Assembly (NCBI RefSeq): GCF_056712565.1
Contig: NZ_CM160072.1
Direction: 5' to 3' (one strand)
DNA length: 64,000 nucleotides
Both the position numbers and the translations under genes were made by a program. Below are positions 1,014 to 64,000 of this stretch, one piece after another (the stretch's first letter is position 1; each line of letters opens with the position of its first letter). The notes beneath the pieces are model-generated. The model saw only the letters and a program-made list of their open reading frames with translations. It had not been told where the DNA came from and ran no database searches.

Positions 1014-1775
1014 TCAGGCGACAGTGCGTTCTCTGTGCTGACTAACATAATGCAGCGGCGTCATACCGTAGAAGTCTTTAAAGACAGAAATAAAGTACGA
1101 CGTACTGTTGTAGCCGCAGGACTGTGATACCTGAGAGATATTTTTACCGTCCATCATTAATTCATTTACGGCATAACGCATGCGGCAGGTGGTGATTATT
1201 TGGCTATAACTGGTGTTTTCGCTTTTCAGCTTTTTCTTTAACAGACTTGGGCTAAGACATAAACAACTGGCTACCATACTAAGATTCCAGTCTTTGTGGA
1301 TATCGCTTTCAATAATTTGATAAACGCTGTCACTTACACAATTACGTAACATATACATCATTAGTGAAAGGAATTTTTTACTGTCGAGAAAACGGGATAG
1401 CACAGTGAATAATAATGCACGTGTTCGTTCCTTTTCTGACTCAGTTTCAGCGGGCATCATGCTATGCTGCGCGGCAACGCGAAAGACGTCTGGCGTCAGG
1501 CATGGCAGGGTGAGGATGGGCGTAGCGCTACGTTGCCATACTGGTATTTGCGAGAGATCTTTATTCAGAAACCGGAGGTAATCTTTGATGATGTCGTGAC
1601 TAATATGAGCAACCAAAGTGTTATTAAGAGAGGAGACGTCGATAATATTATTTTCACAATTTAATAACGCCATGTGGTTAGCTTTAAGGCTAATAGGTTC
1701 TTTCCCATTCACCCTTATCCAGACATCTTTTTCAGTCAATAAAACAATACAAGGTTGGTCGCTGCAAATCCTCAT
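1014..1775 (-). CDS. adiY: AraC-family regulator of the arginine decarboxylase system
   Basis: 253-aa ORF, AraC-type C-terminal HTH, located between adiC and adiA. Confidence 0.9.
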   Translation of the reverse strand: MRICSDQPCIVLLTEKDVWIRVNGKEPISLKANHMALLNCENNIIDVSSLNNTLVAHISHDIIKDYLRFLNKDLSQIPVWQRSATPILTLPCLTPDVFRVAAQHSMMPAETESEKERTRALLFTVLSRFLDSKKFLSLMMYMLRNCVSDSVYQIIESDIHKDWNLSMVASCLCLSPSLLKKKLKSENTSYSQIITTCRMRYAVNELMMDGKNISQVSQSCGYNSTSYFISVFKDFYGMTPLHYVSQHRERTVA

Positions 1776-2110
1776 ACATGTACTCCTGAGTGCGAATAAA
1801 AGACCAGTTCTCGCTAAAGCGAAGCGATACCGGGAAATGGTTATATAATTGTATGATGAATATAAACATGCATAAAAATAACGAGTTTTACTAATATTAC
1901 AAATTTTTATAGTAATTTCTCATGTACATATTTTTTTACAGGCTAAAAAAAGGATAAATAACAGGCAAAAAAAAGCGCGGGGTGGGACCGCGCAAAAAGC
2001 ATGACATTTTTTGTTTGCAGCAATTTTTATGAAAACGTTGCCATACTTAAAAGGCCTCAAGCCAGGCGGCGTAATGTTATTTAACAATTACGCCTTCAGC
2101 GGAATAGTGG

Positions 2111-24149: not shown

Positions 24150-24730
24150 AATAGAAACTCATTCGAAAAGGGAATGATGCAATGATAATTGCCATAACCT
24201 ATTTTTTCCATCTATAGATGGGTTTATTTACATATTATTGGTGAATGTAGGACGTTATTTTTACCCGCCATAAACTTCTTGATTACATAGTATTACGAAA
24301 GGATTTTACTGAGAACCAGAAGTAATTTTCCTTACCATCAAAATTCATCATCTTTGCCAAAGAAAAATGTTCAGAAAATAATCCATGAAAAATTGTCCGG
24401 AGCGCTTACTATTTTAATGGATTGTTAGTCTTTGCATGAGCAAACGGACTGATACATTTCTCTTTGTTCTCATTCAGAAAATCTCATCAGTTGGCGTTCT
24501 GCCCGATGTTGTGCTTTATGGGTGCGTTACGCTCCTGATGACGTCATTTGACGTTCAACAGCATCACGGGGCCGCACGACATTTCACGTCAGTCAGCGCT
24601 ATAGCTCAGAAACAAATTTTCCCGAATTGGGATATGCCCGCAAATTGCTGGTGATGTGGGGAGAATCTGGTTGAGTTCGGTAGAATTGATTTGGCGGCAG
24701 GACGCTTAAATCGTGGCGTCCTGAAACGAA

Positions 24731-44713: not shown

Positions 44714-46515
44714 GTAGGAGGCGGGATCACTCCCGCCGTCCTCTCACACCACCGTACATGCGGCTCCGCATACGGCGGTTCATGTTAACACTGGAACTGC
44801 CTCTGCTGTTCCAGCAGTGATATCAGACCCTGCCTGCTGAACCACGCATTCTTTATCGCCTGATTCATATGGCTTGACTCTGAGTTCCACCATGGCCCGT
44901 GGTTGTTGTACGCTGAGATCATCGCCCTGTCCTTACTCAGTCCTGCTCTTTGCAGGTTCTTTGCCCGGGTTAGCGGTCTCTTCCACTGCCGCTACAACAA
45001 GCAACGCAGTTTCCGTTTGATCCAGCCATCCAGCTCCTCCAGCACTCCTCTGACCTCCGTCAGCCTGAAGTAGCTTATCCATCCACACAGCACTGGTGTC
45101 AGAGCATTGATTGTCGCTTTCACTGATTTGCTCCGGTTTCCCGTCGTCAGACTGTGGACTTTCTCCTTCAGCCTGTTCACGCTCGTCAGGGCTATCTTCA
45201 GCTTCGCCTGTTTGTGCCATGTCACACTGTACCCGAGGAACTTCCGATCCCACGGGCGCGCCACCGCGCTCTTCTTCTCATTCACCTTCAGTTTGTTCTC
45301 CACGAACGCCCTGATGTTCTTCAGCAGATGGTCGCCCGCTTTCCGGCTGCTTACGTAGATGTTGCAGTCGTCTGCGTAGCGGCAGAAGCTGTGTCCACGA
45401 CGCTCCAGTTCTTTATCCAGTTCATCCAGCAGGATGTTCGACAGTAACGGCGACAGTGGGCCGCCCTGCAGCATGCCCGCCTGCCGTTTCTCCCTTTGCC
45501 CGTCTTTAACCATTTCCGCTTTCAGGTAGCGGCGTATCAGTCACAGCACCCGCCTGTCCTTTATCGTTCTGGCCAGACGCGTCATCAGGAGTCTGTGATC
45601 CACCCGGTCGAAGAACTTCTCCAGATCCATATCCACCACCCACCGTTTGCCACCCCGTATGTAACGCTGTGCCTGTTGCACCGCCTGCTGGATAAGCCTG
45701 TCCACCACCGTCGGGATGCCTGAGGTTCTCACGCCGCCATCCGGCTTCGGGATATCCATCCGGCGTATTGTCCGCGGCTGGTAGTTTCCGTCAATCAATG
45801 CCTGCCTGACGCTGCGCCAGTTCTTCTTCAGCCACGGTTTCAACTCCGCCACGCTGAGGTTATCCACCCCCGCCGTGCCTTTGTTTTCCACCACGCGCTG
45901 ATAAGCCAGCATCAGGTTTTCTCTCGTTATCACCGCTTCCATCGTCAGCGGCACTTCCGCTTTCGTTTGCCCACCCGCCGCCGTGCTGATTTCAGCGCCA
46001 TCATGCAGCCCTGACGGATACTGTCCGTCTCCTCTGCCGCTGGTCGCAGTGGCCTGCGCTTGTGCTTCATTAATCATCATCGGGTTCGGATGTCCTAATC
46101 ACAGTTAATCATGTTCGGCCCTTCATGCTGCCGGTTTTGCAGCACTACTACGGCGTCGGCTGACTTCTGCCGCCCCATCCCGGCGCCTCACGGCGCCGGT
46201 AGCACACTGGCAGGGCGACAGATCTCCCGGGGTAATTCACGCGACTTTCCTGCTTATGCCTGTCGGCTTTACGTCACAGCGTTCCGTGTGAGTATCGGGC
46301 TTTGGTGATTAGTGCCACCTTACCCTGCTGCGCCGCCTTAACCGCTTCCTGTTCGTCAGGCCAGCATTTTGCATCCAGCTTCCTTCAGATTTCACCTCGC
46401 GATGAACACCCTTGCCTTCCGCTAACACTTCCCCTCACCGGGTGTGTGGAGGACTTTCACCTCTTAGTCGTTCTTCTGCCACCACAGTTGAAGAACAGCG
46501 CCAGTCACGGCGCAC
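44714..46515 (-). mobile_element. Group II intron (bacterial class C-like: inserted just downstream of an intrinsic terminator)
   Basis: Minus-strand 5' end GTGCG at 46511-46515, six nt after the terminator U-tract; domain V-like hairpin (GAACCGCCGTATGCGGAGCCGCATGTACGG) and domain VI-like hairpin near 44715-44780; RT ORF inside; 3' boundary approximate. Confidence 0.7.
44992..45942 (-). pseudogene. Intron-encoded reverse transcriptase/maturase interrupted by in-frame stop codons
   Basis: RT motifs (GVDNLSV, QGGPLSPLLSNILLDELD, FCRYADDCNIYV) and X-domain (CGWISYFRL); in-frame TGA at 45541-45543 and TAG at 44992-44994 after which the frame still reads RQWKRPLTRAKNLQ. Confidence 0.7.
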
Positions 46516-61823: not shown

Positions 61824-62015
61824 TTATTCTGTTTCTTCCCGGGGGTCGGGTTTGAATTTTCCCAGAAAGTTGTACATCGGTCGCATACAGGGATGCGGAT
61901 AACCCTCCCGCATAAAAACCACTCGGGTTTCTTCGACGCTGGTTACGGTGGCCAGTGCTCCATGATCGTCTTTGTATCGCTGATTGACTTTCGGTAATGG
62001 AACATCTTCTGACAT
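61824..62015 (-). CDS. Hypothetical small protein
   Basis: 63-aa ORF MSEDVPLPKVNQRYKDDHGALATVTSVEETRVVF...; family not recognised. Confidence 0.3.
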   Translation of the reverse strand: MSEDVPLPKVNQRYKDDHGALATVTSVEETRVVFMREGYPHPCMRPMYNFLGKFKPDPREETE

Positions 62016-62607
62016 AAATTTTAGTACGGTAACAGTTAACTAAATTTTCATGTGGTAGCACTGAATCAGGAGACTGCGTTTCCTGATGTGCGCTGTTAAT
62101 TTTCTGTTTTTACGAAACATTTTCCCCTTCTTCCTGTGTATTTTATTGCGCTCCTCTTTTCATGTCCTTCCCATATCCTGAAACTCACTTAAATGCTGTT
62201 GAATCGTCACGCATTGCAATTTTCAATGACTGAAATCAAAAATTGCTATTTTTTAAGCTAACCAACTGTATTAAAAGCATTCAGTGGAATAATTTTCTGC
62301 ACTTTTCCATTAATTATGGTTATAAATTTTGTAATGTGCTGTTTTTGCGATATTAGTCAGAATAAAGAACTGTTCATTTGTATTATATTGATCGATAAAT
62401 CTGCCATATTGCTGTAGTTCAGATCATTATTCTATAATGATCAAAATTAAGTCAGCTAAAAATTGGCAGATTTATTACTCAGCATTCTGGTACCGGTTGA
62501 TGTGGGTAAATACCGGAAAGGCGGTAGCGTGCCATTGCAAAAAATGGTGGGAGGTATCGTCAGGAGGCTGGTAATTGTTGGTATGGCATGAATAAAAGGT
62601 TTTTCGT

Positions 62608-63045
62608 TTGACTGGAAAATTATGTTGCAGGAACGTGAGGGCTGAGGAACAAAGCGTATTCCGGCGCTGTCCGTCCTTGCTGTCACTGACACTGATGTCT
62701 GCTTTATTATCGCCTTTATCTCTTCAGGCAGCGGATGTCCGGCGTAGCGGAGATGAAGCATTTATCATTCAGCAGCAGCGTCAGGAAGCCCTTGAGCAAC
62801 AACTGATGCCTTCAGCCCCTGATGTTCGCCTTTCTGCACCTGGCTCTTTTGCACGTAAGATTAATTTTCCTGTTGAAACGCCCTGTTTTCAGATTAAACA
62901 GACGGAACTGGAGGGGGCTGATGCGTTACCACACTGGCTGCCTTTACAAAAAATCGCCAACGGGGCGGTCGGGCACTGTCTGGGGGCGAAAGGAATTAAT
63001 CTGCTGATGAGTACATTGCAGAACCGTCTGGTCGATCATGGTTAA
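62608..63045 (+). pseudogene. TpsB-family (ShlB/FhaC/CdiB-like) outer-membrane transporter, N-terminal fragment only
   Basis: Signal peptide plus POTRA-like N-terminus ending ...[20 protein letters not shown] then stop; full TpsB proteins are ~550-590 aa. Confidence 0.55.
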
Positions 63046-63116
63046 CCCTTTCCGGTCAGCAGATAACGCGACTGACAGAATTACCCCCGGCATATAACCT
63101 GCAGCGCAGTGCGCAG

Positions 63117-63515
63117 TTGCTGCAGCAACTGATGGTACTTTTCCCCGACAATCCCCATGTTCAGGAAATGGTGGATAACTGGCAGAAGAGCGTAAGGAGT
63201 CGTGCGCTCCCGGAAGAGGCGATGACGGGCTGGAATGAAGGCATGACCCGCTTACAGCAGCTGGCTGAACGCCTGAACCGTCTGGATGAACAGCGGGGAA
63301 AATACATGACGGTCAGTGAACTGAGAACGGAGGTGTTTGGCATCATGCAGGCCTTTAACCGGCATATCCCGGCGGAAGAGCAGTTACGTCGCTATGATGA
63401 AGCCCGTAACCAGAATGGCAGTGAACAGCAGCAAAAACAGGCTGAAATGGCACTGAATCAGCTGATTAATCGTTATCAGGTGGAACACGCTGGCAAACCG
63501 GAGAGGCAGCCATGA
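63117..63515 (+). CDS. Hypothetical protein or gene fragment
   Basis: 132-aa ORF; reading frame extends upstream without a start; family not recognised. Confidence 0.25.
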   Translation: MLQQLMVLFPDNPHVQEMVDNWQKSVRSRALPEEAMTGWNEGMTRLQQLAERLNRLDEQRGKYMTVSELRTEVFGIMQAFNRHIPAEEQLRRYDEARNQNGSEQQQKQAEMALNQLINRYQVEHAGKPERQP

Positions 63516-63753
63516 TGGCTGATAAAACATGGTAATGGAAAATAAACCCAAAAGAATGCGCACACCATGGGCAATCGAAGATATTCGCTACCTTGAAACG
63601 CATTATGGCGTGAAAAAAAACGCGAAATAGCGGCATATTGCCATGGGAGGGGATATGTCTGTCAGGCTGACTTGTTTTTCTCTTAAATAGCCTTTATTTA
63701 AATTAGCCTTGGTATGAAATTAGAATCTATTAATTTTTATCAAAGGAGATTGT

Positions 63754-64000
63754 GTGACAATAGCAAGAGATTCTGTTAGTGGTGAAATTGTTCATGGTCA
63801 TGATCTTCGGGAAATGGATGATCTTTATATACGAACAACCACTTTTGAATGCCCGTATGACAAATGTAGGATACCCGCTACTCCATGTAGCTTCAAAGAA
63901 ATAAATTTAAATCAATCATACTTTCGATATAAAGAGACTCATAGGCCGGGATGTAATATTCATGATCCTAAGAGTAAAAATAAGTGTAACTCAAAGAATA
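63754..64000 (+). CDS. Cys-rich hypothetical protein, partial (runs off the window end)
   Basis: GTG at 63754 preceded by AAAGGAG at 63742-63748; 82 codons without stop; AT-rich. Confidence 0.35.
   Translation, partial: MTIARDSVSGEIVHGHDLREMDDLYIRTTTFECPYDKCRIPATPCSFKEINLNQSYFRYKETHRPGCNIHDPKSKNKCNSKN

Follow-up and report, generated by a model that had tools for sequence, protein, structure and literature searches.

The window, which is the whole stretch of 64,000 nucleotides analysed here, carries at 62608-63045 on its plus strand an open frame of 145 codons that runs from a TTG at 62608 to a TAA at 63043-63045. Its positions 62000-64000 are 100% identical to E. coli S88, APEC O1, ATCC 11775 and many other genomes and near-identical to CFT073. 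A window coordinate equals the S88 coordinate minus 4,596,725.

In S88, RefSeq/PGAP annotates two abutting pseudogenes here, one at 62695-63042 for a 'POTRA domain-containing protein, missing C-terminus' and the other at 63039-63515 for a 'VasL domain-containing protein, missing N-terminus'. The remnant is already known in that public annotation marks a pseudogene and the system to which it belongs is well known. The features of the region are the following.

61824-62015, minus strand: DUF4222 gene, found as an ORF and by PGAP in S88; a backbone marker of the island family, always just upstream of the variable slot with cdiB
62016-62676, plus strand: AT-rich 5′ non-coding region of the former cdiB, a candidate cdi promoter region
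62608-63045, plus strand: the open frame as reported, from the first possible start TTG to the TAA stop, 145 codons
62677-63042, plus strand: the cdiB remnant proper, 122 codons from a conserved TTG or 116 from PGAP's ATG at 62695
63039-63044, plus strand: putative deletion junction with the microhomology TGGTTA, a 6-bp overlap between the tagA homology starting at 63039 and the cdiB homology ending at 63044
63043-63045, plus strand: the TAA stop of the frame, made by the junction, its TA being common to both parents and its final A coming from tagA
63039-63515, plus strand: tagA 3′ remnant with the VasL domain only (Pfam, E = 2e-30), out of frame with cdiB

The open frame and its 5′ side

The frame has a Pfam match of residues 94-145 to POTRA_2 (PF08479) with E = 3.1e-10 and 40.2 bits against a gathering cut-off of 24. 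The match covers profile positions 1-51 of 76 only, so POTRA1 itself is cut short. Neither POTRA_3 (PF17287, the POTRA2 domain) nor the ShlB barrel (PF03865, the C-terminal 16-strand β-barrel) is matched by Pfam in the frame. A TpsB transporter needs two POTRA domains and the 16-strand barrel to export its TpsA partner. Lacking POTRA2 and the barrel, the frame is a gene remnant rather than a TpsB family member in the functional sense.

At the DNA level, the frame shares 96–98% identity with the beginning of cdiB genes from other E. coli as far as 63044, far beyond chance. Judged by this homology, it is the 5′ remnant of a TpsB (CdiB) gene, roughly the first fifth of it. The POTRA_2 match and the DNA identity both bear out the original prediction of a TpsB (CdiB/ShlB-like) remnant. 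That prediction left the frame with a signal peptide and a first POTRA-like segment only, which holds, with even POTRA1 cut short.

Other searches returned little. NCBIfam gives no match at E ≤ 1 for the cdiB fragment or the VasL fragment, and the 145-aa fragment, searched against PDB sequences, gives nothing at E ≤ 0.01. The protein homologue search found only short relatives of at most 249 aa, and the full-length relatives came from the E. coli genome collection. The 145-aa product itself, identical or 99% identical, is called in public assemblies.

The remnant proper contains the signal-peptide region, the N-terminal linker and the truncated POTRA1. Against the intact CdiB of strain SFE8 (550 aa), it covers residues 1-116 and shows eight amino-acid differences in 122 codons. 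About half of the codon changes between alleles are non-synonymous, so there is no sign of purifying selection on the stump.

A hydrophobic stretch followed by AD is visible at the N-terminus, and the start codon is uncertain among 62608, 62677 and 62695. The TTGs at 62608 and 62677 are conserved in 5/5 alleles compared. The GTG at 62635 would give a better signal peptide but is GAG in 3/5 alleles, and this start was rejected as not conserved. PGAP starts the remnant at the ATG 62695, and the TTG 62677 lies exactly 18 nt upstream of it. For a cloned class IV cdiB, the annotated ATG likewise leaves out a signal peptide and the UUG 18 nt upstream was proposed as the start (Halvorsen et al. 2021, PMC8510554); this UUG corresponds to the TTG 62677 of the window.

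The 5′ non-coding region at 62016-62676 is 94–96% identical to the cdiB upstream regions of SFE8, M15 and S42, and probably holds the cdi promoter. A sigma-70 scan showed no plus-strand site upstream of the frame and no excess over shuffles. As the upstream region is conserved, transcription of the stump is possible. Further upstream, the DUF4222 gene takes the same position in O157:H7, M15, SFE8, S42 and HUSEC2011, and the backbone of a 77-aa gene plus the opposite-strand DUF4222 gene is common to the window, O157, M15, SFE8 and S42.

The junction with tagA

The end of the frame lies where two homologies overlap. In local BLAST against the syntenic loci, the cdiB-type homology (O157:H7, SFE8, M15 and S42) holds at 93–98% identity up to 63044. 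The tagA/'vasL' homology begins at 63039, with 99.3% identity to Z1323PEC0012 (L006) and ~91% to strain 10 (L002) and Combat2C1 (L007). The parental sequences at the junction are CATGGTTATGTC in cdiB and GAGTGG[G/A]TAACCC in tagA, and the tagA side reads ...TAACCCTTTCCGGTCAGCAG. They align as follows.

cdiB: ...GTCGATCATGGTTATGTCACC
tagA: ...GTCAGAGTGG[G/A]TAACCCTTTCC
window: ...GTCGATCATGGTTAACCCTTTCC

The crossover is within a microhomology of 5 of 6 positions, TGGTTA in cdiB versus TGG[G/A]TA in tagA. Where the frame meets its stop, intact cdiB has GGT TAT (Gly-Tyr) and continues as ...VDHGYVTTRV. Thus, the stop predicted after ~145 aa is real, but it comes from the joining to the tagA/'vasL' remnant and not from a point mutation. 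The tagA sequence is in a different frame from cdiB, so no fusion protein is made.

The tagA side, 63039-63515, corresponds at 99.3% identity to the 3′ part of an uninterrupted 454-codon ORF of Z1323PEC0012, which has the full architecture of ImpA_N (5e-17), a hydrophobic segment and VasL (1e-36). The architecture of ImpA_N, TM and VasL is that of TagA, a T6SS accessory protein (Schneider et al. 2019, PMC6745524). In Pfam terms the window's remnant keeps the VasL domain alone, and ImpA_N and the TM are absent. The tagA site is unbroken in 472 of 5,426 complete E. coli genomes.

The extent of the putative deletion can be gauged on SFE8, where ~24 kb lie between the cdiB break (L013 24960) and the equivalent tagA position. 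Of this span, ~5 kb are IS elements, perhaps specific to that lineage, so the deletion would be roughly 20–24 kb. By comparison with the intact loci, the loss probably took all of cdiB beyond the stump, the cdiC, cdiA and cdiI genes, orphan toxin modules, two genes for nucleases and ~890 bp of tagA.

Downstream of the junction, no TpsA/CdiA-like gene is found in the rest of the window (63046-64000) or over a further 25 kb in S88. The frame is followed by the VasL remnant and, from 63754 onward, by the start of an unrelated 532-aa hypothetical gene. The absence of a TpsA/CdiA-like gene after the remnant had been noted from the window, and it holds also beyond position 64000 as far as these 25 kb of S88 reach.

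The parent locus and rival origins

The intact relatives of the remnant show what a whole locus looks like. In SFE8 and M15, the island backbone is the same, and the full locus comes directly after its 77-aa gene and DUF4222 gene. The SFE8 cdiB (L011 7036-8688) is one uninterrupted 550-codon frame, although PGAP splits it. In Pfam, its product has a complete POTRA_2 (2e-22), POTRA_3 (2.8e-17) and a complete ShlB barrel (1-311 of 311, E = 2e-109). The best solved-structure matches of this product are the CdiBs of Acinetobacter (6WIL, 1e-78) and E. coli EC93 (6WIM, 3e-52), with FhaC (3e-27) behind the CdiB structures.

On the 3′ side of SFE8 cdiB is a gene for an HlyC-family acyltransferase (PF02794, E = 6e-32), that is cdiC, between cdiB and cdiA. 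A TPS-domain protein (E = 3e-58) is encoded next in the locus, adjoining the intact cdiB, and a 2365-aa protein has the Fil_haemagg_2 haemagglutinin repeats (2e-51) and the PT-VENN pre-toxin domain (2e-19). After it come an ORF of 84 aa and, among IS elements, orphan VENN fragments. Further downstream are a GIY-YIG nuclease gene, a 3′-5′ exonuclease gene, a 101-aa gene and a tagA pseudogene. Annotation renders the cdiA of SFE8 (L011 9241-11080) and M15 (L010 9292-11080) as several pseudogene pieces before the 2365-aa ORF, which carry the ESPR signal, the TPS domain and an internal scrap.

Class IV CDI loci are defined by the order cdiB-cdiC-cdiA, and an acyltransferase gene between cdiB and cdiA is unique to them (PMC8510554). 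The class IV locus of STEC_O31 inhibits growth of neighbour cells via an LPS core receptor and its cdiI protects (PMC8510554). By the gene order and domains in the near-identical alleles, the parent locus would be a class IV cdiB-cdiC-cdiA-cdiI. At least 80% of cdiB-cdiC is present in 192 of the 5,426 complete genomes, including one O91:H21 strain and other Shiga-toxin-producing strains. The ancestral gene order was pieced together from several genomes, and no single genome examined has both the intact class IV locus and the tagA 3′ allele of the window. A UPEC-536-type cdiB occupies the same slot in Combat2C1; it was rejected as the parent, being 25% identical in protein and without a DNA match.

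Hence, we consider 62677-63042 to be, very probably, a non-functional 5′ stump of the class IV CDI transporter gene cdiB (TpsB/Omp85), left by a deletion. In the ancestral island, the DUF4222 gene would have been followed by cdiB, cdiC for a lysine acyltransferase, cdiA for a filamentous toxin-bearing effector and cdiI for the immunity. Orphan toxin/immunity modules, the GIY-YIG nuclease gene, the 3′-5′ exonuclease gene, a small gene and tagA would have come after them.

A single illegitimate recombination at the microhomology would have removed all from cdiB codon 116 to tagA codon 297 and created the TAA stop in the cdiB frame. The product of the stump would comprise no more than the secretion signal, the linker at the N-terminus and POTRA1 to two thirds of its length. 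With no POTRA2, β-barrel, cargo, toxin or immunity gene, the stump would transport nothing, and it is presumably neither expressed nor functional.

Three other origins or roles can be weighed against this stump of a CDI gene. The two-partner system might have been of a haemolysin type (ShlBA) or an adhesin type (FhaC/FHA or HecBA) rather than CDI. The Pfam and NCBI names are indeed generic (ShlB/FhaC/HecB), the two-partner pair on the LAA island is called tpsA/tpsB in the STEC literature (PMC5539235), and one report (PMC10408066) has tpsA among the LAA genes studied for epithelial-cell adhesion. However, CdiC and a CdiA with PT-VENN are encoded in the near-identical intact loci, along with a small downstream gene and orphan VENN fragments, and the CdiB structures surpass FhaC by ~50 orders of magnitude. 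Moreover, on an ICE of E. coli LI60C3, the gene after a 62%-identical TpsB carries a CDI immunity annotation. This type of system is thus very unlikely, and the suggestion of a deleted CDI or haemolysin-type locus narrows to CDI, of class IV as seen from the syntenic genomes.

That the short product serves as a stand-alone periplasmic POTRA/linker protein under selection is extremely improbable, even with a frame intact from the conserved TTG, a conserved upstream region, an unchanged sequence in ~190 genomes and short POTRA-only ORFs called in several Enterobacterales. Its stop is an accident of the junction and cuts POTRA1 at two thirds, the scattered ends and frameshifted tails of the short homologues fit independent decay, and the listed carriers are 99.8–100% identical, so that their identity is uninformative on selection. 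The non-synonymous half of the codon changes and the lack of a PDB match at E ≤ 0.01 and of an NCBIfam match at E ≤ 1 for the fragment also speak against it. As to how the fragment came beside tagA, an insertion or rearrangement could be imagined in islands that are mosaic and IS-rich, but its probability is next to negligible. No IS or repeat is present at the junction, the fragment keeps its native upstream neighbours for >1.5 kb, in SFE8, S42 and strain 10 tagA is found after the cdi region and points the same way, and the microhomology is typical of a simple deletion.

Decay and apparent exchange in the island slot

The remnants are widespread among the 5,426 complete E. coli genomes. Some piece of the cdiB 5′ region is present in ~1,280 of them and the very junction of the window in ~190, including S88, APEC O1, CFT073 and the type strain. 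Among the matches listed, the high identity of the junction carriers is to the window itself, and we take them to be closely related phylogroup B2 strains.

The same locus has been broken elsewhere in other manners. The 348-aa protein of O157:H7 (L003 12127-13173) is a three-part chimera of cdiB residues 1-~181, a cdiA scrap and a tagA TM scrap. Its cdiB part is 62% identical to the intact ICE-borne TpsB, and its cdiA scrap is an internal one of 355 bp, 98.6% identical to SFE8 and with repeated matches to the CdiA FHA repeats. On this composition, the O157:H7 remnant would have arisen by independent decay. What is left in S42 is cdiB′, a scrap each of the cdiA N-terminus and of an exonuclease gene, and the 5′ part of tagA. 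In strain 10 and many others, cdiB is cut by an IS scrap at window position 62736/7, and in ETEC4071 the same point is joined to tagA further downstream. In other Enterobacterales, the short homologues break off at many different places and have frameshifted tails.

The chimera seems to have consequences for annotation. Some tagA fragments are annotated as 'POTRA domain-containing' in strain 10 (L002 14930-15058), S42 (L012 10078-10248) and SFE8 (L013 968-1135). We reject this label, as they are really tagA transmembrane-segment DNA named after the chimeric O157 protein, which seems to cause the same label in other genomes. It also seems to cause the splitting of the intact 550-codon cdiB frame into a pseudogene and a 359-aa CDS in all of the best 40 of the 192 genomes.

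As to the island as a whole, the window begins with the core genes adiC to cadC (1-24149), and the island starts from the cadC side at ~24.3 kb. An integrase scrap (24409-24568) lies at this edge, next to CP4-type genes (cbtA/yeeU and others), and no tRNA was found there. The far end has an intact integrase and the tRNA-Phe gene pheU at 4683586-4685124 of S88, equivalent to ~86.9–88.4 kb of the window. The integrase scrap without a tRNA at one end, together with pheU and an integrase at the other, suggests that the island is composite or rearranged. The remnant is thus in mid-island, ~25 kb from the pheU end, and not at the distal end as had been supposed.

The island within the window contains the CP4-type genes, a grp glycyl-radical propanediol microcompartment locus and the cdiB remnant. 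Two adjacent reverse-transcriptase-domain ORFs of 173 and 179 aa (44992-45513 and 45541-46080, minus strand) are located between grpP and grpO and appear to be a split RT gene that entered the grp microcompartment operon by insertion. Beyond the window, the S88 island has a Qat defence system, a SLATT pair, IS elements and decarboxylase/antiporter genes. After the 532-aa gene come a KAP-family NTPase, QatB, QatC and QatD (4660479-4669232 of S88), which are the Qat anti-phage system, and then the pair of a SLATT-domain gene and a nucleotide-binding-domain gene.

The slot after the DUF4222 gene, from window position 62016 onward, has varied contents. It holds class IV cdiBCAI in SFE8 (L011 7036 onward) and M15, and remnants in O157:H7, S42, strain 10 and the window. 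In the Combat2C1-type genomes (L007 2286-14176), the same slot holds an unrelated cdiBAI, with a cdiA annotated as a tRNA nuclease and a CdiB that shares 25% identity with the window fragment. In HUSEC2011 (L015 19487-21250), it holds tssB-tssC′, a T6SS remnant, and then the same block of the GIY-YIG, exonuclease and small genes. From HUSEC2011 it follows that the slot alternately holds T6SS or CDI loci and that tagA is a leftover T6SS accessory gene. Interbacterial weapons (T6SS, class IV CDI and class II-like CDI) thus appear to be exchanged at one site.

In the Combat2C1-type genomes, the cdiBAI is followed by the end of an IS66 and by 135 bp from the start of tssC, which are joined to tagA at the same hexamer as in the window (L007 ~1700-1840, minus strand). 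The native tssC in HUSEC2011 (L015 20001-20160) reads GCACTGGATATCTGG, so the Combat2C1 junction used a 6-bp microhomology of TGGATA. The two independent deletion junctions end at the same tagA hexamer TGGNTA (codon W297), five codons before the VasL domain. Their left partners, class IV cdiB in the window and the tssC start in Combat2C1-type genomes, are unrelated and were each joined by microhomology. The tagA alleles differ by 7–9% between the two, and both keep precisely the whole VasL domain. It is conceivable but unlikely that deletions in this family of phe-tRNA islands end preferentially at tagA codon 297 (63039-63044). A hairpin at the junction was rejected as the cause of a recurrent break, its DNA fold being no better than shuffles (z-score +0.86).

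The biological weight of the remnant is small, as it is one more decayed locus for interbacterial competition in an E. coli genomic island. Its exact junction is useful as a lineage marker (~190 complete genomes). The history of the phe-tRNA islands is one of swapping and losing such weapons, T6SS and both CDI kinds, in one slot. For annotation, the point of use is that misleading 'POTRA domain' labels on tagA fragments, and splits of intact cdiB, appear to stem from a chimeric reference protein of O157:H7.

Among the known systems, CdiB and FhaC (6WIL, 6WIM and 4QKY) resemble the intact parent, which has POTRA1, POTRA2 and the 16-strand barrel and matches CdiB at E = 1e-78. The window fragment differs from them in having neither POTRA2 nor the barrel and no PDB match at E ≤ 0.01. 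TagA (PMC6745524) resembles the junction partner, which is the VasL end of a gene with the same architecture. In contrast, the window has only the 3′ scrap of this gene and no T6SS genes nearby; among the related islands, only such ones as that of HUSEC2011 keep tssB-tssC′ in the same slot.

The class IV cdiBCAI of STEC_O31 (PMC8510554) is likened to the parent by gene order and domains. The intact alleles are in a cdiB-cdiC-cdiA(-cdiI) cluster with an HlyC-type acyltransferase, and share with it an annotated ATG that lacks the signal peptide and a TTG 18 nt upstream. The difference is that the window holds cdiB codons 1-116 (122 from the TTG) and no cdiC, cdiA or cdiI.

Module III of the LAA island of LEE-negative STEC has tpsA (ORF43) and tpsB (ORF45) with one ORF between them, on a phe-tRNA island, and O91:H21 is listed as a LAA-positive serotype (Montero et al. 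2017, PMC5539235). From the serotype and the architecture, the LAA tpsA/tpsB may well be the same locus as the parent cdi locus. The window differs in that its strain is non-STEC and its island is at pheU, not pheV.

The O157:H7 protein WP_001345400.1 (348 aa, 'POTRA domain-containing protein') shares with the remnant the same cdiB allele (98% in DNA) and the same upstream backbone, and would likewise be a decay product of the same locus. It differs in its deletions, as its cdiB runs to residue ~181 and is fused in frame with the cdiA repeat scrap and the tagA TM scrap.
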